IMG/VR virus record: IMGVR_UViG_3300010366_000015
Span: 1-55,407 of that record
From: a virus
Taxonomy: Duplodnaviria; Caudoviricetes
Length of the DNA: 55,407 nucleotides
Strand: one strand, 5' to 3'
Positions 960 through 21,048 of this stretch are shown piece after piece. The notes beneath the pieces are model-generated. The model did no database searches, was not told the origin of the DNA, and worked only from the letters and a program-made list of their open reading frames with translations. Made by a program: the position numbers and the translations under genes. How positions within the stretch are numbered: the stretch's first letter is position 1; the number at the start of each line of letters is the position of its first letter.

Positions 960-1436
960 TTACTGCGTGATCTGCCATACCGCTCTTACGCGCGCCCGAC
1001 GCTTCACGCGTTCGTCCTTGATCGACACGACATCGCCAGTCCGACCGCATACGTACTTGCGGGCGGTGACCGCTTGCCAGTGGTGCCCGGCTGATACCAG
1101 CCAGACAACGCCATCGGCGAAGCGGCCATCTTGGCGCCATCGCTTATGCCAACTCGCCAACGTCGGCTGCATCCGCCCGGCTCCGCTATAGACGGCCACC
1201 TCCCTCACTTGCAGACCCAAGCGGGTCAGCACGGTACGCACCTCCCACTGATGCGTGCCGGTGATCTTGCGTCTGCCGGTGACGATACGGAACATCGCTG
1301 CCGTCTCGGCTGTGTCCAGCCCGGTAAGGGCCGAGACGATCGCGGGGCCGCACCATCGGTTGCCTCCGGCCTTGGGATGCCGAACCGGACGCAACTTGAC
1401 TACAGGCGTGCGCGCGCCCATTGTGGTCTCTCTCAC
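960..1436 (-). CDS. Putative papain-like (C39-like) cysteine peptidase domain protein
   Basis: NRWCGPAIVSAL (Cys helix) and GHHWQAV (His strand); AGGAG SD; has its own promoter. Confidence 0.55.
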   Translation of the reverse strand: MRETTMGARTPVVKLRPVRHPKAGGNRWCGPAIVSALTGLDTAETAAMFRIVTGRRKITGTHQWEVRTVLTRLGLQVREVAVYSGAGRMQPTLASWHKRWRQDGRFADGVVWLVSAGHHWQAVTARKYVCGRTGDVVSIKDERVKRRARVRAVWQITQ

Positions 1437-1497
1437 GTAATTCTCCTGTCAAAGAACAGTCCGGCGGGGTCGCTGTAACGGCCTCGCCGAACAAATC

Positions 1498-1526
1498 ATT
1501 ATAACACAATCCGAAAATAAAATCAA
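1498..1526 (-). promoter_or_regulatory. Sigma70-type promoter
   Basis: TTGATT-N17-TATAAT with an extended TG, upstream of 960..1436. Confidence 0.8.
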
Positions 1527-2280: not shown

Positions 2281-2412
2281 CGCTGATGTCCATGCTGACG
2301 TAGCGCAGATACAATTCCAGTTCGGCCAGATCGACTGGTGGCATTAATTCACACGGCGCGCCGAATAGCTCCAGCACCTCTTCCGGTGTCATGTCGGTGG
2401 TTTTGTTTTCGC

Positions 2413-2655
2413 TCACGGTTGCGGGTCTCCATCTTCAATAGCGCCCTCGCGCTTGGCCATATCAATCGCGCCCTCTGCGGCTTCGGTGGTCATTCCAAAA
2501 CGCATCACAAGCAGGTCGCGCACGTCTTCCAGATCGGCGCCGAAGCCATCCGGCTTGCCGTCGCCAAGGGACGCCACAGAGACACAATGCAGAACCTTTA
2601 GGACCGGCTCGCTGTATGGGGTCGATTGGTCGCGCCCCGGCTGATCTTCACTCAC
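2413..2655 (-). CDS. Hypothetical protein
   Basis: GTG start overlapping the upstream stop; N-terminus SEDQP is shared with 1812..2000. Confidence 0.55.
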   Translation of the reverse strand: MSEDQPGRDQSTPYSEPVLKVLHCVSVASLGDGKPDGFGADLEDVRDLLVMRFGMTTEAAEGAIDMAKREGAIEDGDPQP

Positions 2656-3858: not shown

Positions 3859-4047
3859 TTAGCAAATCACTCCACCCCGCGCCATCAACTCTCTGGCGTG
3901 ATCCCAACAGCACGTTGCTTGTCGCTCTCCAGTGGCCAGCGTGCGCGTCCACCAGCCGCGAGGTGCGTCGTGCAGGGCGCCAAGTTCGCCCATGTCAACC
4001 GGCTGTCCCTCACCGGTCGTTCCGCAGATTTCGCATTTGAACTTCAT
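3859..4047 (-). CDS. Small Zn-finger-like protein
   Basis: MKFKCEICG...CCWDH; ATGA overlap with the integrase stop. Confidence 0.55.
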   Translation of the reverse strand: MKFKCEICGTTGEGQPVDMGELGALHDAPRGWWTRTLATGERQATCCWDHARELMARGGVIC

Positions 4048-5063
4048 GCCTTCGCCGCCTGCCACGCTTCGAGCCTCGCGATTGCTTCCTTGGCGCCGAT
4101 CTTCTGGTTCATTGACTTGGTGTAGTGCTGCACCATGCTCATCGTTCCCCATCCGCCAATCGTCATAATCAGGCGCTCGGAGCAACCGGCTTGCGCGAGC
4201 CTTGTGGCCGCCAGCTTACGCAGTCCGTGGATCGACCGGCCTTCGGGGAAGCCGTCAATCTTCGCGAGGTAGATGCTGATCTGCGCCGACAGATTGCCCG
4301 GCTGCCACGGCTCGCCCTTGTCGGTGGTCAGCACGGTCCCGACAACCGGCCTGCCCGACGTGTCCACCACTTTCGCCTCTGCCAGCCAAGCGTCAAGCTC
4401 GGCCTTCAAGGCGGCGGTGACGGGCAGTTCCAGCTTCACGCCAGTCTTGATCTGCGTCAGCTTGATCGTCTCGCCGTCGTACTGCGACCAGCGCATGGTG
4501 GTCAGGTCGCTGCGGCGCTGGCCAGTATGCAGGGCCAGTACCACGGCGCGGCGCAACCGCTCCGGCAGATGGCGCATCGCGAGCGCCACGTCTTCTTCCG
4601 TCCACGGTTCGAACTCGCCCAACTTGATGTCTTTGCGGAGTCTGGTGGCGGGCGAGACGGCGATGTACTCGCGATCGACCGCGAAGCTGAACAGCGCCCC
4701 GACGGCCGTCGCGAAGCCAAGGGCGGCGCCGGGACCGCTGGCCTCGTTGATGGCGTCCCGATGGTCCAACAGATGGCGCCGGGTGATCGTATTGACCGGC
4801 ACGGTTTCGAGGTTCTCCAGCAGCCGGTCCAACGACGGCCTGTAGGTGATCTGCGATGACCGGGCGAGGTTGGTCCATCGCGGGGATCGCTTGTACGCCC
4901 GCATCAGTGCCCCGAGTGTGTTGGGGTCTGATGGCGGTGTTGGGGTGGGTTCTTTCGGCTGGTGGGCGCCGTAGTGGTAGACCTTAACGGTGCCGTCTGC
5001 CCTAGTGTATCGGACGACGCGACCGGCGGCGGCGCGTCGCTTGCGCGAGGATTTTTTCAACAT
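4044..5063 (-). CDS. int: Tyrosine recombinase / phage integrase
   Basis: HTGQRRSD (R), QIKTG (K), HGLRK (HxxR), GGW and HYT catalytic Tyr. Confidence 0.95.
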   Translation of the reverse strand: MLKKSSRKRRAAAGRVVRYTRADGTVKVYHYGAHQPKEPTPTPPSDPNTLGALMRAYKRSPRWTNLARSSQITYRPSLDRLLENLETVPVNTITRRHLLDHRDAINEASGPGAALGFATAVGALFSFAVDREYIAVSPATRLRKDIKLGEFEPWTEEDVALAMRHLPERLRRAVVLALHTGQRRSDLTTMRWSQYDGETIKLTQIKTGVKLELPVTAALKAELDAWLAEAKVVDTSGRPVVGTVLTTDKGEPWQPGNLSAQISIYLAKIDGFPEGRSIHGLRKLAATRLAQAGCSERLIMTIGGWGTMSMVQHYTKSMNQKIGAKEAIARLEAWQAAKA

Positions 5064-5307
5064 TGGCCCTAGTCCCTTCATCGGTAGTCGTAGCGGTAGT
5101 CGTTACCGCGTTCTTTGCGGCACCGGAAGTATCCTCGCCTTGCATTATCAAATCAAGCATCTTGCGGCTCCACCGGGGCGAACGCGGGCCTGCCGCGTAA
5201 GAGGGCTTGGGCAGCACGCCGTCACGGACCAGCTTGTTGAACTTGGACACTTTGACGGACAGGTGGCGGGCGGCGTCTTCGCGCTCCATCCATTCTTCGC
5301 CGATCAT
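5002..5307 (-). CDS. Excisionase/AlpA-like DNA-binding protein
   Basis: EDAARHLSVKVSKFNKLVRDGVLPKP...PRW helix-turn-helix-wing, directly upstream of the integrase. Confidence 0.75.
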   Translation of the reverse strand: MIGEEWMEREDAARHLSVKVSKFNKLVRDGVLPKPSYAAGPRSPRWSRKMLDLIMQGEDTSGAAKNAVTTTATTTDEGTRANVEKILAQATRRRRSRRPIH

Positions 5308-12598: not shown

Positions 12599-12996
12599 TG
12601 AGCAAGACGTTGCGCCGGGTGGTTGGCGGGCGTGATCCCCGCTACCCGTGCAAGCGCACGCTGTCGGTGATCTTTGACGACGAAACCTTTTGGGAGGTCG
12701 TGGCGCGGGCTGAACGCGAGGGCACCAGCGCGAGTGAGCAAGTCCGGCTGTTGGTGACATGGGGGCTGGAAGCGGCGACGGCGGCTGTACCTAGGGCAAG
12801 AATACAACCGCCGTCTCTATCCCCGGCCAACGTGGGGGAAGGCCGGGAACCTTTGGCACGTCCACCGCGACGCGCCTTTACCCGAGACTCGGATTTTACC
12901 GCAAGCCCGGAGAACGGAGCAACCGCAAATGGCCACGCCACGGAGGTCAGGGCGCCGGACGCAAATCGGGGCGGAGTGGGGGCCGTCGATGGATGA
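12592..12996 (+). CDS. Putative ribbon-helix-helix protein
   Basis: RTLSVIFDDETF...AEREGTSASEQVRLLV. Confidence 0.55.
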   Translation: MVMSKTLRRVVGGRDPRYPCKRTLSVIFDDETFWEVVARAEREGTSASEQVRLLVTWGLEAATAAVPRARIQPPSLSPANVGEGREPLARPPRRAFTRDSDFTASPENGATANGHATEVRAPDANRGGVGAVDG

Positions 12997-13492: not shown

Positions 13493-13664
13493 TCTCGCCT
13501 TCCATCATCCGCAGCACGGTGGCCAAAGCGCGCAAGGCATCGGCGCCTTTCGGCTGCCCATCTTCTTCGGCGCCAGATGCCATCATTTCCGCCGCAGTCG
13601 CGGCAACGCCAAGGCCAAGGCGATACGCGCGAACGAATATGTCGTGCCTGTCGTTTGTCACCAT
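13473..13664 (-). CDS. Small helical protein, paralog of 3339..3530, antisense within the rightward operon
   Basis: GGGGAG SD; clear similarity to 3339..3530. Confidence 0.6.
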   Translation of the reverse strand: MVTNDRHDIFVRAYRLGLGVAATAAEMMASGAEEDGQPKGADALRALATVLRMMEGEITPPAP

Positions 13665-13679
13665 GGGCGTGCTCCCCGC

Positions 13680-13898
13680 ATGATCGTTGACGATAGCGAC
13701 AAGGGGCGTCGATGCAACGCTTGCGGGGGCGCAGTGTTTGCGATCCGCATCGGGCGCGATGAGGTCCGAATCTTCGAAGATATGCTGGTCGTTCGCGGGG
13801 CGGCCGATCAGCATTGGTGCCTAACCTGTTGGGAGAGTCGATTTGGTAGCAACGAACAACGAAGGTCATCCGCTGATGCAGCGCCAAGAGCGCCGTGA
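13680..13898 (+). CDS. Small CxxC...CxxC protein
   Basis: CNAC...CLTC. Confidence 0.5.
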   Translation: MIVDDSDKGRRCNACGGAVFAIRIGRDEVRIFEDMLVVRGAADQHWCLTCWESRFGSNEQRRSSADAAPRAP

Positions 13899-14478
13899 CG
13901 AAGTGCGGCGGTGCTTGCAGATCATCGGCTGGTCACAGATGCAGTATGCCGATCGCATCGGCCTCAAAATCGCCGGGGTCGCGCAAATCATGCACTGCAA
14001 GGTCGATGTGGCCGACAGCGATATTCGCTGGTTGCAGCGCCTCGCCGAAGCGGTCGCCTCGATACCTCGCCCGGCGATTGCCAACGATCCAGATACGCCG
14101 GAGGTCGCAAGGCTGGCAGCGCCGATCGGGGCGGCGGTGACAATCCACGCAACGGAGGGCGAGCTTAACGCGGTTGCAGCGAAAACGAGGGACGTAGCAT
14201 TGGAAGAGACAGCGCGCGCTATCGCGGAGGTCTATCGCTGGTCGGGGTCAACCGGCGAGGTCAGTGAACATGAACTGGCGGGCGCCAAATGGGCGTTGGC
14301 CAAGGTCGCCGAGTCACTCGGGATTGTCGATCGGGTCCGCGTGCTGATCCGGCAAGTCCCGATGCAGCAAGTCGAGCCGGAGCCGATACCGGGCGAGTCG
14401 ATGGTTCATACGTGGACGCCACCGCTACCGGAGCCAGCGCCAGCCCGCGAAGCTGTCTCGCGCGAACCGTTCGCCTGA
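13876..14478 (+). CDS. XRE-like HTH protein
   Basis: IGWSQMQYADRIGL N-terminal HTH. Confidence 0.6.
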   Translation: MQRQERRDEVRRCLQIIGWSQMQYADRIGLKIAGVAQIMHCKVDVADSDIRWLQRLAEAVASIPRPAIANDPDTPEVARLAAPIGAAVTIHATEGELNAVAAKTRDVALEETARAIAEVYRWSGSTGEVSEHELAGAKWALAKVAESLGIVDRVRVLIRQVPMQQVEPEPIPGESMVHTWTPPLPEPAPAREAVSREPFA

Positions 14479-14480
14479 AC

Positions 14481-14515
14481 GAGAAAGGGCGGCTCGCCTG
14501 CCAGCGAAGCCGCCC
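14481..14515 (-). terminator. Terminator-like hairpin closing the leftward early operon
   Basis: GGGCGGC...GCCGCCC followed by TTTC on the minus strand, between convergent units. Confidence 0.55.
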
Positions 14516-14587
14516 TCCAACCTCACAACAAGGAAAGACCCATGACTCCCGAAGTGCGCGAAGTCTATCGGGTCACGCTGCCGGATG

Positions 14588-14827
14588 TCACCCTATTTTG
14601 TGGGCCTCGATCTCGGCTCGGGTGGCGATCAGCGCGGACCAGAGGCGGCCACGCTGTTGCAGGATGCCATGACGCTCGCCGTCGCGGCTCCGCCATAGCT
14701 TGCCATCCTTGGTCGCCATGCCGTTGTTTTCCATCCACCTCCGGGCGGCGGTGCGGCTGGCATTGGACAGGATCAGCGGGCGATCGGCCATCATACGACG
14801 CTCCCGCACCACGCGGTACAGGGTCAT
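14588..14827 (-). CDS. Hypothetical early protein
   Basis: ATGA-coupled to the upstream ORF. Confidence 0.6.
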   Translation of the reverse strand: MTLYRVVRERRMMADRPLILSNASRTAARRWMENNGMATKDGKLWRSRDGERHGILQQRGRLWSALIATRAEIEAHKIG

Positions 14828-15138
14828 CGGGGCGGCTCCAACCCGGCCATGACGAACGGCTCGCTGCCTTCGAGGTCCCAACAGCCGCCAACGGTCACGA
14901 TTGCCGATCCATCGGCGAACACGAAGCGGGTGAAGCTGTTCGCGGTCGCCTCGCTGCGGGATATGGGCCGGATGTGATACTCGGTCTGGTACGCGCCGGG
15001 ATCGTCGGGCACGCTGTCGGCGTACTCGGCGATGCCGCCACGCTGCTGGCAGAGGTCTTCCAGCCATATGCCGTCAAGGGTCTGCCAGTGGGTGCCATCG
15101 TCGCCTAGCAGCGACGAAATCTCGGTTGCGGTAGTCAT
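14824..15138 (-). CDS. Hypothetical early protein (acidic)
   Basis: CTAGGGCA leader directly before the ATG. Confidence 0.7.
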   Translation of the reverse strand: MTTATEISSLLGDDGTHWQTLDGIWLEDLCQQRGGIAEYADSVPDDPGAYQTEYHIRPISRSEATANSFTRFVFADGSAIVTVGGCWDLEGSEPFVMAGLEPPR

Positions 15139-15165
15139 TGCCCTAGTCTCCGGTTGGTGGGTTAG

Positions 15166-15197
15166 GTCATATCACGGAAAGTATATAGCTCGCTACA
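15166..15197 (-). promoter_or_regulatory. Early promoter/operator repeat, copy 1
   Basis: TGTAG-CGAG-CTATA-N6-CCGTGATATGAC. Confidence 0.6.
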
Positions 15198-15447
15198 GGG
15201 ATTTCCGCCGTTTGCGTTTGGGTGGCTCGGTGTCAACCGGGGGCGGGTCAAGCCGCTCCCGAAGCGCCTTGTTCTCTTTCCAAGCCGCCATGAGGATCGG
15301 CACCCAATACGGGATACCGGCCGTGACGCCCCATTGGTAGACGGCTTGGCCGCTGACGTTCAGCGCCGTGGCCATCTTCCCCTTGGTGATCCCCAAAGCG
15401 CGGAGGTCGGCGACAAACCGCGCGTGTGTGTATTCAGCCATCGCCAT
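15193..15447 (-). CDS. Cro/XRE-like HTH regulator
   Basis: LGITKGKMATALNVSGQAVYQW; TAGGGCAA leader. Confidence 0.7.
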   Translation of the reverse strand: MAMAEYTHARFVADLRALGITKGKMATALNVSGQAVYQWGVTAGIPYWVPILMAAWKENKALRERLDPPPVDTEPPKRKRRKSL

Positions 15448-15499
15448 TTTGCCCTAGCTGGTCGAAACGGCCGGATTTCAGCCCGGCCGGTCGATTCGG

Positions 15500-15721
15500 T
15501 TATAGCCAATCTTCGAAACGGAAGTCGTCGCGTTTGGGATGCGGATTGCTGCCCGACGAACGGCGCTGATCCACGTACCGGAGAAATGGGCAAACGATCC
15601 ATTCCGATCCGGGCCAACGGCGCCGATACTCATCCCGATACCAAAGCGCGTCGCTGCGCTGATCCTGCGTCAGCGCCAGCCATACCCTGCCGTCATCGTG
15701 GCGGCCAATGAGTGCAAACAT
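15500..15721 (-). CDS. Hypothetical early protein
   Basis: TGATG-coupled. Confidence 0.6.
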   Translation of the reverse strand: MFALIGRHDDGRVWLALTQDQRSDALWYRDEYRRRWPGSEWIVCPFLRYVDQRRSSGSNPHPKRDDFRFEDWL

Positions 15722-15915
15722 CAGTCTTGCCGGTTGATCGCCAGCCGATAGCGGCCGACATCGTTGCCGTTGATGTCGCGGATCGTCTGGTAAAAGTCCG
15801 CATCGGCGAGGTCGAGCCGATCGGCGATAGTCCGCAGAATGCGCGCGATCTCGCCTGTCATGTCATCCGCGAACGCGGCATTGTCGCACGTCATCTGAAC
15901 CGTGAATCTGGCCAT
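15721..15915 (-). CDS. Small phage early protein
   Basis: DNAAF...EIARILR..A....I.D.NGN.VG recurrent phage motif; TAGGGCAA leader. Confidence 0.75.
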   Translation of the reverse strand: MARFTVQMTCDNAAFADDMTGEIARILRTIADRLDLADADFYQTIRDINGNDVGRYRLAINRQD

Positions 15916-15937
15916 GGTCTCTTGCCCTAGTGATGCA

Positions 15938-16003
15938 AGCTGGCATCGTCAGCCACCGGGAACAACCCCGGCAGGAGAGGCGGCCGAAGCCGCCCCTTTC
16001 GCC
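15938..16003 (-). ncRNA. Type II hammerhead ribozyme HH1 (CUC; cleavage predicted between 15975 and 15974)
   Basis: GGC GAAA GGGGCGGC-UUCG-GCCGCCUC UC^ CUGCCGGG-GUUGUU-CCCGGUGG CUGACGA U GCC AGC. Confidence 0.9.
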
Positions 16004-16059
16004 TAGCATCCGAAATGGTAATCGAGCCACCGGAGCAACCGGCGGAGCGTCGCGCGCAC
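16003..16059 (-). CDS. 18-aa micro-ORF MRATLRRLLRWLDYHFGC
   Basis: GGGAGG SD and GTG start; its TAG overlaps HH1 stem II, as stop codons do at the other ribozymes. Confidence 0.5.
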   Translation of the reverse strand: MRATLRRLLRWLDYHFGC

Positions 16060-16060
16060 G

Positions 16061-16432
16061 TCAGCCTCCCGTCACCGCGTAGACGCGGCACGGCACGGTG
16101 AAGTCAACGCCACGGTGGGCGCCGCTGAAACCGTGGTGAAAGAACCAGCACCAACCGTCGCGCGTCTCGCCAGTGTCAACGATGCGCTCGATCGGTATCG
16201 CCGGATCAAGCCCGCCCGACATCGACATGCCGGAACCGAAGAAATAGAACGATCCGCCGCCCTTGCTGGTCGGCTGGATTGAGTCGCCCCAATGGTGCGC
16301 GAACCGGCGCAACTCCCCATTGGCCAACCGCACAAAGTCGCCGACGCGTGGCCCGCTGCGGGCTTGCCACTCGATCAGCCGCTCGGCGCGTATCGCCGCA
16401 TCGCGTTCGTCAAATTCAAAGCGTTTGCACAT
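16061..16432 (-). CDS. Hypothetical protein of a type seen in mobile-element early/leading regions
   Basis: GPRVGDFV...GSF...SGGL...TGE...WFFHH...GV.F...CRVY; TAGGGCA leader. Confidence 0.75.
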   Translation of the reverse strand: MCKRFEFDERDAAIRAERLIEWQARSGPRVGDFVRLANGELRRFAHHWGDSIQPTSKGGGSFYFFGSGMSMSGGLDPAIPIERIVDTGETRDGWCWFFHHGFSGAHRGVDFTVPCRVYAVTGG

Positions 16433-16436
16433 TGCC

Positions 16437-16679
16437 CTAGTCCTCGATCTCGATTTCGTACCGCGTGCCGCCGTCGGTCAGCCGCAAGCCGGGCCGCGTG
16501 CGCGCGCCAGTGCCAACCGGGCCGCCCAATACCTCGCCTTTCATCACGGGCGGCTTGCCAAGGTGAATCTCCCCCTCTGCGAGTTTGCGAGTCACGTCGG
16601 CCGCGTCGTAGCCGTACGGCTTGAAGTACCGGCACGCCGCAGCGAGGTTGACGAAATAGCTAGTCCCGATCCGTGTCAT
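16437..16679 (-). CDS. Hypothetical early protein
   Basis: TAGGGCA leader; its own stop is the TAG of the next leader motif. Confidence 0.7.
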   Translation of the reverse strand: MTRIGTSYFVNLAAACRYFKPYGYDAADVTRKLAEGEIHLGKPPVMKGEVLGGPVGTGARTRPGLRLTDGGTRYEIEIED

Positions 16680-16699
16680 TGCCCTATCTCCGATGCGAT

Positions 16700-16770
16700 T
16701 GGCTGGCATCATCAGGCGACGGAAACCACTCCGCCGCGACAACGGGCGCCGAAGCGCCCGCCGTTTCGCC
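16700..16770 (-). ncRNA. Type II hammerhead ribozyme HH2 (GUC; cleavage predicted between 16738 and 16737)
   Basis: GGC GAAA CGGCGGGCGC-UUCG-GCGCCCGUUG UC^ GCGGCGGA-GUGGUU-UCCGUCGC CUGAUGA U GCC AGCCA. Confidence 0.93.
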
Positions 16771-17310
16771 TTACGCTGCAACCACCTCCCGAAGATTGCG
16801 GACCACGCGGCGGGCGTCCCATGCCTCGCGGACCATCTTCCGGTATTCCTCGCGATAGTTCCGCCGGAACGTTCTCGACTGGTGCGCGATAGCGTGGCGC
16901 GTCGCGCGTTCGTGCATTTCAGCCGACATCAGCATTGCGCGCGCCCGCCGGATCGGATCGGGCGCCGACTCCGTGCCGACGATAACGCCATCCGGCAACG
17001 CGCCCGCTGGCCAGTACTGCCCGGCTGGCAGCCTCGCATCGGGGCGGCATTTGATCCTAGTACCGCGTGCCGTCGTAAAGCTGCGCAGCTTGCTCGGAAT
17101 GGCGCACCAAAACGACGCGCCCGCCACCAAATGCCAGTTTTCCCCGACATCGGCCGCCACGGCTCGGCACGCCACCACGCGAGCGTCAAAAAACTCTTCC
17201 GCTGTCATAGCCGCCACCTTGGCAGCTTTGGCGCGCGGCTTTCGGATTGTCTGGCCGCAGCATGGGCAAACGCCCGTAGCGGCCGTGATGATTGGAGTGA
17301 TCGCGTTCAT
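16771..17310 (-). CDS. Hypothetical early protein (N-terminal CPCCG)
   Basis: TAGGGCAA leader; TAA stop abuts HH2. Confidence 0.7.
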   Translation of the reverse strand: MNAITPIITAATGVCPCCGQTIRKPRAKAAKVAAMTAEEFFDARVVACRAVAADVGENWHLVAGASFWCAIPSKLRSFTTARGTRIKCRPDARLPAGQYWPAGALPDGVIVGTESAPDPIRRARAMLMSAEMHERATRHAIAHQSRTFRRNYREEYRKMVREAWDARRVVRNLREVVAA

Positions 17311-17335
17311 TTTGCCCTATCAGTCTCGATTGCAT

Positions 17336-17408
17336 TGGCTGGCATCGTCAGACCACGGGAACCGCCCCGTGATGACAGCGGGCGCCGATCCGCGCCCGCC
17401 GTTTCGCC
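17336..17408 (-). ncRNA. Type II hammerhead ribozyme HH3 (GUC; cleavage predicted between 17374 and 17373)
   Basis: GGC GAAA CGGCGGGCGC-GGAUCG-GCGCCCGCUG UC^ AUCACGGG-GCGGUU-CCCGUGGU CUGACGA U GCC AGCCA. Confidence 0.93.
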
Positions 17409-17626
17409 TATCTGCGAGTGAGTTTGCGCCGCATCGCCTTATCGCTTTCGGACTGCGCCAGCCGGTACGCCCGCGCCATCATTTCGATCTCGCTGAACGC
17501 GAAGATCAGACGAAACCCGCCGTCGGCTCCGTTCACGTCGAACGTGAGGCTGTAGTCATCGGCGCCCGCAACCTGCAACGTCGCAGCTTGCGCGATCATT
17601 TCACCATTGGCTCGCTTGATAATCAT
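17408..17626 (-). CDS. Hypothetical early protein
   Basis: TAGGGCAA leader; TAG overlaps HH3. Confidence 0.65.
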   Translation of the reverse strand: MIIKRANGEMIAQAATLQVAGADDYSLTFDVNGADGGFRLIFAFSEIEMMARAYRLAQSESDKAMRRKLTRR

Positions 17627-17658
17627 GGGAATTGCCCTAGTCAGTTTGTAACGGCCGC

Positions 17659-17689
17659 AGAATACCACGGCCGTTTATAGGTTGCTACA
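17659..17689 (-). promoter_or_regulatory. Early promoter/operator repeat, copy 2
   Basis: TGTAG-CAAC-CTATA-N5-CCGTGGTATTCT (extended -10 TGnTATTCT). Confidence 0.65.
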
Positions 17690-17692
17690 GGA

Positions 17693-18097
17693 TTATGCGG
17701 CCGCCCGTTTGGTGCGCTCGCGACGTGCGCCAAGGTTGGCGTAGCATCGCGCCCGCCACTCCGCCGCGTAGCCGCCGATCTCTTCCACGGGCGAAAGCAT
17801 GGCAAGGATGCCAGCCGGGCAATGGGACTCGTATGGTCCCATATCCTCGCTCATTTCCTTCCAGCCAAAGCCGCCACGTCGCGATGTCAGCACGACAACG
17901 CCTAGCACGTAGTCCTTGCCCGGTCGCACGATGCGAGCCGCTGCGTACCACGTCGAACCGACAAACGCGGCTTTGAGGATCAAGCACGCGTGCCGATCGC
18001 CATTGGCGTCTAGTTTGTCGTGCTGAAACTCTTTCCGCAGAAAAGAGTCCGGTGTCTCGCCATACGCGAGACTGTCAATCGTAGTCCAACCACCCAT
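17693..18097 (-). CDS. DUF6927-like protein (plasmid/ICE-type hypothetical)
   Basis: FGWKEMSEDMGPYESHCP..IL..LSP...A.EWRARC. Confidence 0.65.
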   Translation of the reverse strand: MGGWTTIDSLAYGETPDSFLRKEFQHDKLDANGDRHACLILKAAFVGSTWYAAARIVRPGKDYVLGVVVLTSRRGGFGWKEMSEDMGPYESHCPAGILAMLSPVEEIGGYAAEWRARCYANLGARRERTKRAAA

Positions 18098-18125
18098 TGC
18101 CCTAGTCCTATTCCAAGTCTCGATT

Positions 18126-18199
18126 GCGGCTGGCATCGTCAGACGGCCGCCACCACGCGGCCGTGACGTGCGAGCGACGGGCGCCCGCACGTTTCGCCA
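18126..18199 (-). ncRNA. Type II hammerhead ribozyme HH4 (GUC; cleavage predicted between 18165 and 18164)
   Basis: UGGC GAAA CGUGCGGGCG-CCCGU-CGCUCGCACG UC^ ACGGCCGC-GUGGUG-GCGGCCGU CUGACGA U GCCA GCCGC. Confidence 0.93.
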
Positions 18200-18201
18200 C
18201 G

Positions 18202-18741
18202 TCACCCCACGTCGGCAGCGGATTTGTGATACCAATCGGATGACGCCACGCCACGCACCATGCGAGCCGAATTGCCGTCGGGCGCAATCCCGTGGTCCAA
18301 CTCCACTACCGCGTGGAGTTTCCGCATCGTTTCGTCACCGCGGTACACGTACATCAGCAACACGTCGGCATGGAGTCCGGCTCGCGCGACGTAGCCGTTC
18401 GAATGGTAGTCCGGCTGGAAATCGAACGCGATTGCATCGCCCGCCCGTAGCGTCGCCAGCAAGCTAGACGCGTGGCAATGCTGCGACGGATAGACGCTAA
18501 CATGCGCCCAACACTGCGCCCGAGACACGTCACGCGTCGGGAAATCGCCCAAGCACGTCACCTTAGCCGGGATGACGTGGCGCGCCTCCTGCGCGAACGG
18601 ATCGGCCGATTTGTCGGCTCGCTTGATGCAATGGACCAAAGTCTTTTCGTCGCGGTTCGGCTGAAACGCTACTAGCAGCGTGTCCATTTTGCGCAGTGCA
18701 ACAATGTCCAGCTTGGTCAGCACGTATGGGGAGGTAAACAT
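18202..18741 (-). CDS. Hypothetical early protein
   Basis: TAGGGCAA leader; flanked by HH5 and HH4. Confidence 0.75.
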   Translation of the reverse strand: MFTSPYVLTKLDIVALRKMDTLLVAFQPNRDEKTLVHCIKRADKSADPFAQEARHVIPAKVTCLGDFPTRDVSRAQCWAHVSVYPSQHCHASSLLATLRAGDAIAFDFQPDYHSNGYVARAGLHADVLLMYVYRGDETMRKLHAVVELDHGIAPDGNSARMVRGVASSDWYHKSAADVG

Positions 18742-18777
18742 TTGCCCTAGTTCCTAGTCAGTCAGTCAGTCGATACA

Positions 18778-18850
18778 GGCTGGCATCGTCAGACCGTGGC
18801 CACCACGCCACGGTGACAGCGGGCGCGACGTGGCGCCCGCCGTTTCGCCA
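18778..18850 (-). ncRNA. Type II hammerhead ribozyme HH5 (GUC; cleavage predicted between 18815 and 18814)
   Basis: UGGC GAAA CGGCGGGCGC-CACGUC-GCGCCCGCUG UC^ ACCGUGGC-GUGGUG-GCCACGGU CUGACGA U GCCA GCC. Confidence 0.93.
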
Positions 18851-18852
18851 CG

Positions 18853-19758
18853 TCACGCAGCGGCTTTCAGTTCCGCCACGTCAGCAAATTTCAGGAGATA
18901 ATCGGCGGCTTTCGAAGCCTGCGAGGCGGCCGAAATAATCGCCCGATTATCTTCGCGAAGCACGCTCAACCAAGAACCGATGTAATCCGCGTGGCGTACC
19001 GTCGGCTCGATACCTAAAGCCGCGCAAGTGAAAGCCGCGCCCATTTCGGCAACCAACTCTTCCCGCGCATAGTCGGGCGATCCGTGGCGGTTGGCGAATT
19101 TACGCGCCAGCCGATGTTCGGCGCCCGTCCAGTGCGTCAACTCGTGGAGCGTCGTTCTGTACCAATTGATCGCGTTCGGTTCGTACGCTTCGATCGGCGG
19201 AACTGCGATGCAGTCGCGGCCGATGTCATAGTACGCCCGGTTGCCAGCAACCGCGATCCGGGCGCCCGAGTTCCTAATCAGCCGATCGGCCGCCTCGTGC
19301 AATTCTGGCATCGTAGGGGCGGGCGGAGCATCGGGCGCCGCTGGCAGTCCGTCGCATTGCTCGCGATTAAAGACAGTGTACGCTTTCAGGAAATAAACGG
19401 CTCGCTGGTCATCTTCCGGCTTGGCGCGTTCAGCCTTGGGAATGAACCGATCGGCATAGACGACATGAACGCCACGTTCGCCCGCCCGTACGTGGCCGCC
19501 TAGTTCAGCGGCTTGCTTATACGTCAGCCAACCGTGAGAACGGTGTCCAACTGCCATCCCGTGAACCCATAGCAGGAGAACATTCACGCCCGAGTAGTTC
19601 CGCCCGGTTGCGGCATTGTGCGGTAACGCGATGGCCGCGCCCGCAACGTTATTCCGCCACGGCTGAACCCATGGGACAGTTCCCGCCTCTAGCTGCGAGA
19701 TTATGCGGTCTGTAACCGTCTGGTACAGATCGGCTCGATTTAACTTGCTGTCAGTCAT
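18853..19758 (-). CDS. ardC: ArdC-family antirestriction protein (ssDNA-binding + zincin-like domain)
   Basis: DLYQ.VTDRII..LEAG..PW.QPW, Y.G.N.L.LW, W.TYKQA..LGG.VR.GE, HELTHWT, YAREELVAE, HADYI.SWL. Confidence 0.93.
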   Translation of the reverse strand: MTDSKLNRADLYQTVTDRIISQLEAGTVPWVQPWRNNVAGAAIALPHNAATGRNYSGVNVLLLWVHGMAVGHRSHGWLTYKQAAELGGHVRAGERGVHVVYADRFIPKAERAKPEDDQRAVYFLKAYTVFNREQCDGLPAAPDAPPAPTMPELHEAADRLIRNSGARIAVAGNRAYYDIGRDCIAVPPIEAYEPNAINWYRTTLHELTHWTGAEHRLARKFANRHGSPDYAREELVAEMGAAFTCAALGIEPTVRHADYIGSWLSVLREDNRAIISAASQASKAADYLLKFADVAELKAAA

Positions 19759-19807
19759 TGAAGATTGCCCTAGTTAGTGTCGCGGCCATATCCCGCCGCT
19801 GGACAAA

Positions 19808-19839
19808 CCAATATCACGGGCGGGATATAGGGCGCTATA
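19808..19839 (-). promoter_or_regulatory. Early promoter/operator repeat, copy 3 (upstream of ardC)
   Basis: TATAG-CGCC-CTATA-N6-CCGTGATATTGG; perfect palindrome arms. Confidence 0.6.
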
Positions 19840-19847
19840 TATATTTG

Positions 19848-19876
19848 TTGAGCGGGCGGAAAAATCGTGATAGCTT
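19848..19876 (+). promoter_or_regulatory. Rightward sigma70-type promoter (divergent from ardC)
   Basis: TTGAGC-N17-TAGCTT with an extended TG. Confidence 0.55.
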
Positions 19877-19909
19877 TCCAACCGTCAAACCTAGATAGGG
19901 CACAACGCC

Positions 19910-20095
19910 ATGATGACTCTGACGAAAGCACAATTGATCGTTCGCAACCGGCTTGCCTATGAACCGCGCGAGGTACGCGAGGCGGCCGTATGGTTGCTCG
20001 GAAGCCTATCGGCAACCGACGAAGATGTTCGCGACGCGTCCCACGCAATCGCGGTTGGAACCCGCGATCGGCCGTCAGCTATCCCGCACAACTGA
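19910..20095 (+). CDS. Hypothetical early protein
   Basis: TAGGGCAC leader. Confidence 0.65.
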   Translation: MMTLTKAQLIVRNRLAYEPREVREAAVWLLGSLSATDEDVRDASHAIAVGTRDRPSAIPHN

Positions 20096-20155
20096 ACACC
20101 ACGGGCGCCCGTCACTCGGGCGGGCGCCGATCTCTCAAACCTAGGGCAATCCGCT

Positions 20156-20368
20156 ATGACTCATCCTGCAATCCACCGCTACAATATCGCCCGCGCCCGC
20201 GACGAAAACGCTCGCCTCGACTGGCAGCGCACGCAACAGGCGCATCGCGGCTACCTCATCATGCGGCTACTGACGGGCGGCTTTTCCGTCAGCCGCGACG
20301 GCTCGCATATCTGCTACGCCGAGTCAGTCGAGGCCGCCCGCGCCACAATCGACGCGTTGCTAGACTGA
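20156..20368 (+). CDS. Hypothetical early protein
   Basis: CTAGGGCAAT leader. Confidence 0.7.
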   Translation: MTHPAIHRYNIARARDENARLDWQRTQQAHRGYLIMRLLTGGFSVSRDGSHICYAESVEAARATIDALLD

Positions 20369-20411
20369 TCTCGGGCGCCAATCTCTCAACCTCAACCTAG
20401 GGCAATCCACA

Positions 20412-20732
20412 ATGACCGGATTCACAGTCTCTTATGACATCACCACGGAAGAGTCGGCCGAATATGGCGACACGGCCGAAAACGGGATACTCGGGCGCGA
20501 TCTCACGCTACGCGACGCAATTGAACTCGTTACCGCCACGCGGACCAATAGAGTCGGCGGCGTATCCTCGATCGAGTGCGACGAATCACCAATGCGGGCG
20601 CCGCGATGGGTAACGATCAATAACGGGATCGAGTACGAGTCGGGCGCCTATGAATCCCGTTCGCTCCATTTCCCGCCTCGTCTCACGGCCGCATCCCGCC
20701 GCCGTATCGCCCGTCTACTCGGAGTACGCTGA
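20412..20732 (+). CDS. Hypothetical early protein
   Basis: CTAGGGCAAT leader; YDITTEESAEYGD..E.G recurrent phage motif. Confidence 0.75.
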   Translation: MTGFTVSYDITTEESAEYGDTAENGILGRDLTLRDAIELVTATRTNRVGGVSSIECDESPMRAPRWVTINNGIEYESGAYESRSLHFPPRLTAASRRRIARLLGVR

Positions 20733-20735
20733 ACC

Positions 20736-21020
20736 ATGGCAACCAATCTCGACCCTACTCGCGACGAAATGCGGGAATATCTGAACTCGACCCCGTTCAT
20801 TCACGAGTGCGACGAATTCGACATCGAAGAGTCGATCTACTGGTTCGCGTCCGATTACCACGGCGGCCAATGGTCCAACCTCTACGCCGCACTGTGCGCG
20901 TCCGATTACTCGCCCGGACCAATCACCACGGGATGCGAGCCGGACTCCGTCGCGTCATACCTCTATGATGAACTGGTTCAGCATTTCGCCCCATCGCTGC
21001 GATTTGGCGAGACTGCCTGA
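20736..21020 (+). CDS. Acidic hypothetical early protein
   Basis: IYWFASDYHGGQWSNLYAAL recurrent phage motif. Confidence 0.75.
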   Translation: MATNLDPTRDEMREYLNSTPFIHECDEFDIEESIYWFASDYHGGQWSNLYAALCASDYSPGPITTGCEPDSVASYLYDELVQHFAPSLRFGETA

Positions 21021-21048
21021 TCTCTCCGCCTGATCTCGCCACCAATCG

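Follow-up and report, generated by a model that had tools for sequence, protein, structure and literature searches.

The IMG/VR virus record IMGVR_UViG_3300010366_000015 (Duplodnaviria; Caudoviricetes), which is classed as linear and has an estimated CheckV completeness of 84%, was analyzed over its whole length of 55,407 bp, hereafter the window. Its minus strand carries a block of small genes that begins with the anti-restriction gene ardC, and the gaps between these genes hold five type II hammerhead ribozymes. The five copies fit within 2.9 kb and all lie on one strand. Every open reading frame (ORF) of the block is on the minus strand like the ribozymes, with a G+C content at third codon positions (GC3) of 0.65-0.83 compared with a G+C content of 0.63 for the whole window. 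We refer to the ORFs that follow ardC as g2 to g11; the hammerheads bound units of one or two well-supported ORFs, leaving a possible 18-codon ORF uncounted.

The Rfam model RF02276 (Hammerhead_II), which has a gathering score of 37 bits, matches all five copies, and each aligns over the full length of the model (positions 1-66). Hammerhead 1 (18774-18850, 49.0 bits) is predicted to cleave after the C at 18815, yielding a 3' product that begins at 18814. For hammerhead 2 (18124-18199, 49.7 bits), hammerhead 3 (17333-17409, 45.3 bits) and hammerhead 4 (16697-16771, 43.6 bits) the predicted 3' products begin at 18164, 17373 and 16737, respectively, and for the weakest copy, hammerhead 5 (15934-16004, 34.1 bits, window E 0.0035), at 15974. 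In the window-wide scan four of the five copies passed the gathering score, with E-values of 3e-7 to 1e-5. A preliminary description of this DNA, made from the letters alone, had placed five minus-strand type II hammerheads at these sites and anticipated five minus-strand matches in an Rfam search; both expectations held, the matched copies all having intact cores and the fifth being the only one to score below the gathering value. The RNA 5' ends that it had predicted (18814, 18164, 17373, 16737 and 15974) are in each copy the base after C17. The same model found nothing in 14 control genomes, and no other ribozyme family in Rfam matched anywhere in the window at E-values up to 1. A covariance model built from the five copies revealed no sixth copy in the window, as the next match scored 15.4 bits compared with at least 75 bits for the five. 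Overall, the locus is a well-formed array of five type II hammerheads, one of which is marginal.

Each of the five copies has the sequence GGC-GAAA-(stem III)-UC^-(stem I)-CUGA(C/U)GA-U-GCC, in the type II order with helices I and III closed by loops and helix II open. This helix order and this core are those of RF02276. The catalytic core as given by Perreault et al. (C3 U4 G5 A6 N7 G8 A9, G12 A13 A14, A15.1-U16.1 and H17, with core-adjacent mispairs disallowed; PMC3088659) is present in five of five copies. H17 is a C and the core-adjacent pairs are standard throughout, and a U at core position 7 occurs in hammerhead 4 only. Stem I has five distinct sequences of eight pairs each, with two-sided changes at six of the eight positions among the window copies. 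Stem III, of 8-10 pairs and longer than in the Rfam consensus, is near-identical in copies 1, 3 and 4 and differs in copies 2 and 5. The earlier claim that stems I and III both differ between copies while keeping their pairing thus applies fully to stem I, whereas for stem III it is weakened by the three near-identical copies. Stem II comprises three pairs. The minimum-free-energy fold has the hammerhead shape in copies 1 to 4; in hammerhead 5 every stem pairs around an intact core. A pseudoknot between loop I and the 3' tail, that is, the bases just after stem II, could form with 3-5 pairs in each window copy. Perreault et al. describe such a pseudoknot for type II hammerheads, in which loop I pairs with the four bases that follow stem II (PMC3088659).

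In order to compare these structures with those of relatives, we used a query pattern that joins the two core halves of the window variant and matches 78 IMG/VR stretches. An alignment of 135 hammerheads (124 distinct sequences), as identified by the five-copy model, was assembled from the window, 29 of the 78 stretches and follow-up loci. Fitted to a covariance model, which in itself favors pairing, the aligned stem positions pair in 98.0% of cells compared with 67.1% in shuffled controls and at most 51.2% when partners are slid, a large margin. Two-sided changes occur in 20 of the 22 pairs among the 124 distinct sequences. The pseudoknot gives a fainter signal across the family, with 79.1% of cells pairing compared with 77.0% after shuffling; all four of its pairs change two-sidedly, in only seven cells, so that covariation is weak. 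At the second pair of stem III, hammerhead 5 has a G-C in place of the usual C-G, a state found in two of the 124 distinct relatives.

The ribozymes are fitted closely to the gene ends. Each hammerhead starts 0-3 nt past the upstream stop codon or overlaps it, and 34-52 nt separate its end from the start codon that follows. In copies 1 and 2 stem II begins 3 nt after a TGA, which for copy 1 is the stop of ardC, and copy 4 directly follows the TAA of the 179-aa ORF g5. Copies 3 and 5 overlap a TAG: the first bases of copy 3 overlap the stop of the 72-aa ORF g4, and the start of hammerhead 5 overlaps the TAG of the possible 18-codon ORF (16003-16059, minus strand), which we read from the sequence. 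From the cleavage site to the next start codon the distance is 58-73 nt.

The first ORF of the block, ardC (18853-19758, minus strand, 301 aa), encodes a protein with Pfam domains ArdcN (PF08401, 4.2e-40, residues 10-130) and MPTase-PolyVal (PF18818, 1.3e-48, residues 155-280). It also matches PHROG 7245, annotated 'anti-restriction protein', at 8.5e-88, and an HExxH-type motif is visible in the translation. The assignment of this protein to ArdC, with an ArdcN domain and a predicted zincin-like metallopeptidase domain, is solid. Between hammerheads 1 and 2 lies g2 (18202-18741, minus, 179 aa), which has no match in Pfam, PHROG or NCBIfam. A word-indexed search finds g2 alone; an exhaustive search places it in an unnamed family with 189 representatives at E<=1e-3, in which no Pfam family was common to more than one of 50 members and no credible match to the Protein Data Bank (PDB) was found. 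An adiponectin-like assignment raised by a PDB search was rejected, as no stretch of the match passes on its own.

The unit between hammerheads 2 and 3 holds g3 (17693-18097, minus, 134 aa), with a match to PHROG 21047 of unknown function (2.1e-6) and a score for DUF6927 of 16.9 bits against a cut-off of 27, and g4 (17408-17626, minus, 72 aa, GC3 0.75), for which no family matched. At the g3/g4 junction, where there is no hammerhead, a fold of 17630-17700 shows a plain 11-bp hairpin (17650-17675, minus strand). Its arms resemble stem I of hammerhead 2, and it may be either a relic or a plain stabilizing hairpin; we rejected it as a decayed sixth hammerhead, since neither the Rfam model nor the five-copy model matches it. 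Between hammerheads 3 and 4 lies g5 (16771-17310, minus, GC3 0.74), and between hammerheads 4 and 5 lie g6 (16437-16679, minus, 80 aa) and g7 (16061-16432, minus, 123 aa), all three without a family match. Downstream of hammerhead 5 follow g8 (15721-15915, minus; PHROG 9027, 6.7e-14), g9 (15500-15721, minus), g10 (15193-15447, minus) and g11 (14824-15138, minus). The product of g10 is weakly Cro-like, a putative helix-turn-helix protein with 21.4 bits for P22_Cro, below the cut-off, and matches to PHROG regulators at 2e-3 to 5e-3. Beyond ArdC, no Pfam match above the curated cut-off was found for the nine other ORFs of the block that were scanned, and NCBIfam returned no match for eight of those nine or for g11. 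The preliminary description had called the block an anti-restriction operon of anti-defence genes: ardC is real, and the wider label leans on this one gene of eleven.

The organization of the block also bears on its transcription. No intrinsic terminator lies at the gene junctions; the scan gave 10 sites in all compared with 7.0 in shuffled sequence, near shuffle level, and both minus-strand terminator-like sites in 15900-19800 sit inside ORFs. Upstream of ardC, a gap at 19773-19896 separates the minus-strand block from a block of small plus-strand ORFs and, judging by the ORF layout, presumably holds divergent promoters on both strands. A consensus scan of this 124-nt gap found no sigma-70-like promoter; the start of a transcript at ardC is accordingly presumptive, as is the early timing that the preliminary description gives these genes.

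Given the type II identity of the ribozymes, their co-oriented placement in the gaps and the lack of terminators at the junctions, the natural reading is that the array cuts a long minus-strand RNA into gene-sized units. The activity is predicted, and we put the probability of this reading at roughly 80%. Each ribozyme would fold while the long RNA is being synthesized and cut itself after C17. Six units would result, namely ardC, g2, g3 with g4, g5, g6 with g7, and g8 onward. The piece upstream of each cut would keep its own stop codon, since the ribozyme begins at the preceding stop or at most 3 nt from it, and the G+C-rich stem III hairpin, carrying a 2',3'-cyclic phosphate, would form its 3' end. 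Downstream of the cut the RNA would open with a 5'-hydroxyl at the base of stem I, and a leader of 58-73 nt would run from there to the AUG. As only the three-pair stem II holds them together, the cleaved halves should separate. Terminal hairpins and a 5'-hydroxyl end would slow exonucleases and attack by 5'-end-dependent RNases; each unit would therefore have its own lifetime as well as its own leader. A likely consequence is that each unit gains its own stability and translation, independent of its neighbors. Co-transcription of the block, cleavage in vivo and these effects on stability and translation are what we infer from the observed arrangement.

The phage itself is temperate and tailed, to judge by its genes: the window has a tyrosine integrase gene (4044-5081, minus strand) and genes for a YqaJ-type recombinase, a DnaB helicase, a large terminase and a portal protein, as well as one tRNA-Ser. 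Its DNA is present in soil metagenome runs (DNA contigs of three runs), and no RNA run was among those listed for 15700-19900. A search of viral contigs with the terminase gave one 14.8-kb fragment with a 100% identical terminase and otherwise distant relatives of at most 47% identity, and no terminase relative was found among the genome contigs searched. An alphaproteobacterial host was considered and set aside, the evidence being DnaB matches of only 33-35% identity in two metagenome-assembled genomes, too weak to name a host. When the region was compared by blastn with 50,697 annotated phage records, nothing beyond short matches inside ardC was returned.

The processing idea is not new. For clustered prophage hammerheads that flank single genes, Perreault et al. 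(2011, PMC3088659) put forward that the RNA is cut into gene-length mRNAs, and according to their report native polycistronic constructs of about 2 kb from three arrays cleaved in vitro, the Agrobacterium tumefaciens array including the anti-restriction gene ardA. The arrays described there (the A. tumefaciens triple with ardA, Azorhizobium caulinodans and Clostridium scindens) resemble the window in several ways: their ribozymes share a strand and border single genes or short blocks, they belong to phages or prophages with an integrase, the flanked genes are small and unconserved, and one array includes an anti-restriction gene. The type II topology with a pseudoknot and the model of a long RNA cut into gene-length mRNAs appear in the same paper. 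The window differs from these arrays in having ardC rather than ardA and five copies rather than three, in coming from an uncultured soil virus and in that its activity is predicted only. A 2017 review (PMC6155905) notes that clustered motifs flank small ORFs that are not conserved and that their association with phages is persistent, while it leaves their biological role open, and a 2019 review (PMC6765202) takes the same view of polycistronic transcript processing. As reported in PMC8782182, three type II hammerheads near phage-like genes of Desulfovibrio vulgaris cleave in vivo, as detected by cyPhyRNA-seq. Like the window copies they lie near hypothetical or phage-like genes, two of them close together, and they are cut in cells; unlike them they occur as one to two ribozymes per locus rather than as an array, and operon-wide processing was not demonstrated in what that paper reports of them. 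Our literature search turned up no later functional study of such hammerheads. The present locus is thus a new example of a pattern published in 2011, and the arrangement, the processing model and the link to an anti-restriction gene have all been in print since then.

The motif is common in phages. From the 78 IMG/VR stretches we scanned 50 records with RF02276 (contigs of at least about 19 kb, one per contig, which left out 28 stretches); 48 match at E<=0.001 and 44 score above the cut-off. Seven of the 50 (G012, G027, G037, G039, G040, G045 and G047) have as many as 9-12 copies, all on one strand and spread over about 10-15 kb. These seven records, of about 50 kb each, are mutually syntenic relatives. 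In the long arrays a stop codon precedes each ribozyme, and a Shine-Dalgarno sequence and start codon follow within about 10-40 nt. They share with the window the same hammerhead variant, many copies with the extra U and GCCAGC tail, and the spacing on one strand with one to a few genes between copies. They differ from it in being twice as long, in having a normal Shine-Dalgarno sequence where the window has the motif TAGGGCAA (see below), and in having none of the 11 window proteins tested, ArdC included. A conserved GTG(T/C)AAGTG-like word, often overlapping the upstream stop codon, lies 2-8 nt before many hammerheads of these arrays and of one further record (G004).

The ribozymes do not follow ArdC closely. 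In five loci, which belong to four records (L077, L102, L061/L146 and L060), an ArdC-like gene directly adjoins a hammerhead, and no hammerhead was found in 52 viral loci collected because they encode ArdC relatives (five-copy model on all 52, Rfam on the first 16). For the ten non-ArdC window ORFs, no relative was found in 141 other loci. From these comparisons, what the hammerheads accompany is small phage genes that change readily, and not ArdC in particular. Two other features were seen on viral contigs with an ArdC relative: on L009 a 24-bp unit is repeated 14 times in tandem at about 2335-2647 (minus strand), and L020 carries an Rfam DUF3800-IX RNA at 1435-1504 (minus strand, 61.3 bits).

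Several observations weigh against the cutting of the transcript into gene-sized units. Hammerhead 5 falls short of the Rfam cut-off (34.1 compared with 37 bits) and was seen at a laxer threshold, and a competing fold of -37.4 kcal/mol is 2.9 kcal/mol better than its hammerhead fold of -34.5 kcal/mol. All five copies have an unpaired U between A9 and stem II, before G10.1, which the Rfam consensus lacks and which appears as an insertion in cmscan. The extra U after A9 recurs in 86 of the 135 aligned rows, part of a set collected by a pattern requiring that U, and by sequence it is a common trait of this phage group. Not every junction has a ribozyme: g3/g4, g6/g7 and g8/g9 are without one. The failure to find a sigma-70-like promoter ahead of ardC belongs here as well. 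Finally, as far as crude ORF calling allows, some orthologous junctions of the seven syntenic phages have a hammerhead while others lack one; the hammerheads themselves thus turn over, and no particular junction seems to need a ribozyme.

A second feature of the block is the 8-mer TAGGGCAA, which occurs 16 times in the window compared with 0.59 expected copies, a count reached in none of 100 shuffles. Thirteen of the 16 copies are followed at 0-10 nt by an ATG in the same orientation; they fall between 15138 and 21139, on both strands: ten on the minus strand (15138, 15449, 15922, 16432, 16679, 17312, 17632, 18097, 18742 and 19765) and three on the plus strand (20142, 20398 and 21132). The remaining copies are at 12792 (plus), 22173 (minus) and 31082 (minus). 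Near-variants also stand ahead of the ORF at 19910 and, in the integrase ORF, ahead of a second in-frame ATG a short way past the called start, and the TAG stop of g6 forms part of the copy that precedes g7. In five minus-strand cases GGAG, GAGG or AGGA stands just upstream and the motif fills the spacer, and in the plus-strand cases the motif's own AGGG lies 9 nt before the ATG. Many other genes of the phage have ordinary GGAG-type sites without TAGGGCAA, and in the other hammerhead arrays ordinary ribosome-binding sites occupy its slot. Between hammerhead 1 and the next start, a short CTGA-repeat run ending in TAG (18750-18773, minus strand) puts stops in all three frames just before TAGGGCAA; pile-ups of TGA and TAG likewise precede the motif at 17320, 17640 and 21125.

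No enrichment of the 8-mer was seen elsewhere, with at most two copies in any of 141 loci and at most four in any of 99 loci. The latter are the viral stretches matched by the 14-mer GGACTAGGGCAATG, a number at about chance level by rough estimate. A literature search for TAGGGCAA gave unrelated matches, as far as the titles and abstract openings of the 15 listed out of 927 show. On an unrelated viral contig (L178; about 111, 1984 and 4472, minus strand) three copies of the 8-mer each form the 3' half of a small GCCC-loop-GGGC hairpin, which a Shine-Dalgarno site and start codon follow directly. A role as a T7-like promoter was rejected, nothing being conserved upstream of the motif, as was pairing with the freed 3' strand of stem II, which would give only four pairs and would not account for copies that occur without a hammerhead. 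TAGGGCAA may act in translation as a signal, may serve an RNA-binding protein as its operator, or may simply be shared boundary sequence left by duplication. Its placement before the starts of the presumed early genes is the one feature of the locus that fits no known class we found.

A close variant of the phage is present in soil run X2, which belongs to another study than the likely source run. Its contigs cover 13500-14682, 14824-17396, 17375-17670, 17672-19487 and 19460-19912, with about 95-97% identity to the window over 14824-19912 (75-85 differences per 1.8-2.6 kb). These contigs overlap across 14824-19912, with no listed joint there, and so take in each of the five ribozyme sites in a diverged relative. 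Of the differences, 40 were listed and 172 more exist; one of the 40 falls in a ribozyme, at 18168, where it turns a G-C pair in stem III of copy 2 into G-U. The variant lacks two whole small plus-strand ORFs, at 20156-20368 (gap 20115-20372) and 20736-21020 (gap 20713-21039). The first gap measures 256 nt, which is the spacing of two TAGGGCAA copies; the joint there has only 21 letters on one side and is weakly supported. On this sequence evidence the gaps suggest that whole genes are gained or lost where boundary sequences are repeated.

A rival reading is that the ribozymes are mainly boundary modules of exchangeable gene cassettes, their RNA cleavage being tolerated or secondary. The units of about 75 nt, together with TAGGGCAA, would then persist as homology for the gain, loss and shuffling of small genes, or would spread selfishly. 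The five window copies are invariant in 35 of 78 columns, as repeated DNA homology would have it, and gene content between hammerheads is unconserved, none of the ten neighboring ORFs having a relative in the 141 other loci. The coming and going of hammerheads at orthologous junctions of the seven syntenic phages and the two genes missing from X2, the first break matching the TAGGGCAA spacing, point the same way. However, the invariant core and the covarying stems of 124 distinct copies reveal selection on the active fold and not just on DNA homology. The X2 gains or losses moreover fall in the block without hammerheads, and the short side of the first joint limits what it can carry. We therefore regard a primary role as boundary modules as quite improbable.

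The cut ends might also be rejoined, by the ribozyme or by an RtcB-type ligase, into circular or spliced gene-length RNAs, or cleavage might be switched by a signal. By established hammerhead chemistry the g2, g3 with g4, g5 and g6 with g7 units would carry the ends needed for joining, and the possibility was raised by Perreault et al., who according to the same report sought spliced or circular products and found none (PMC3088659). No ligase matched among the 31 ORFs of the window scanned against protein families, in a scan that included no search aimed at ligases. As for a signal-switched ribozyme, the stems are plain hairpins and nothing in the window suggests a ligand-binding extension. 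We consider either outcome very doubtful. That the matches are inactive relics or chance look-alikes, with the gaps processed, if at all, by host RNases at hairpins, is scarcely credible: hammerhead 5 is below threshold with a competing fold and a plain hairpin fills one junction that has no hammerhead, but four copies reach E-values of 3e-7 to 1e-5 window-wide, all five cores are intact, stem I shows compensatory changes and none of the 14 control genomes matches.

Processing into gene-sized units remains the reading that we favor, and it invites an extension that we regard as unlikely. Hammerhead and TAGGGCAA together could make each small gene a self-contained expression cassette, swappable by recombination between the boundary repeats. 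As a tentative picture, each such cassette would have a hairpin-capped 5'-hydroxyl leader, an unusual initiation signal and its own 3' hairpin, so that the expression of its neighbors would be undisturbed. Parallels exist in RiboJ insulators, whose self-cleaving ribozyme leaves each gene with a fixed 5' leader whatever the upstream sequence, and in the PeSL cassettes of T4-type phages, which consist of a promoter and a stem-loop and whose repeated boundary units go with gene shuffling. RiboJ is man-made, from a type III satellite-RNA hammerhead, and PeSL units are promoters and not ribozymes; the likeness is one of working only, and we claim no membership in either class. If the extension were true, the locus would do by means of ribozymes, for the accessory and counter-defence genes of a phage, what integron or T4 PeSL cassettes do elsewhere.

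Overall, the locus leaves existing knowledge of these ribozymes unchanged, and public viral contigs hold longer arrays of 9-12 copies. The role of bacterial and phage hammerheads is still open according to the two reviews cited above (PMC6155905, PMC6765202). With five ribozymes, six predicted units, exact predicted ends and ardC as its first gene, the array offers a compact locus in which the processing of a phage transcript by hammerheads could be tested.

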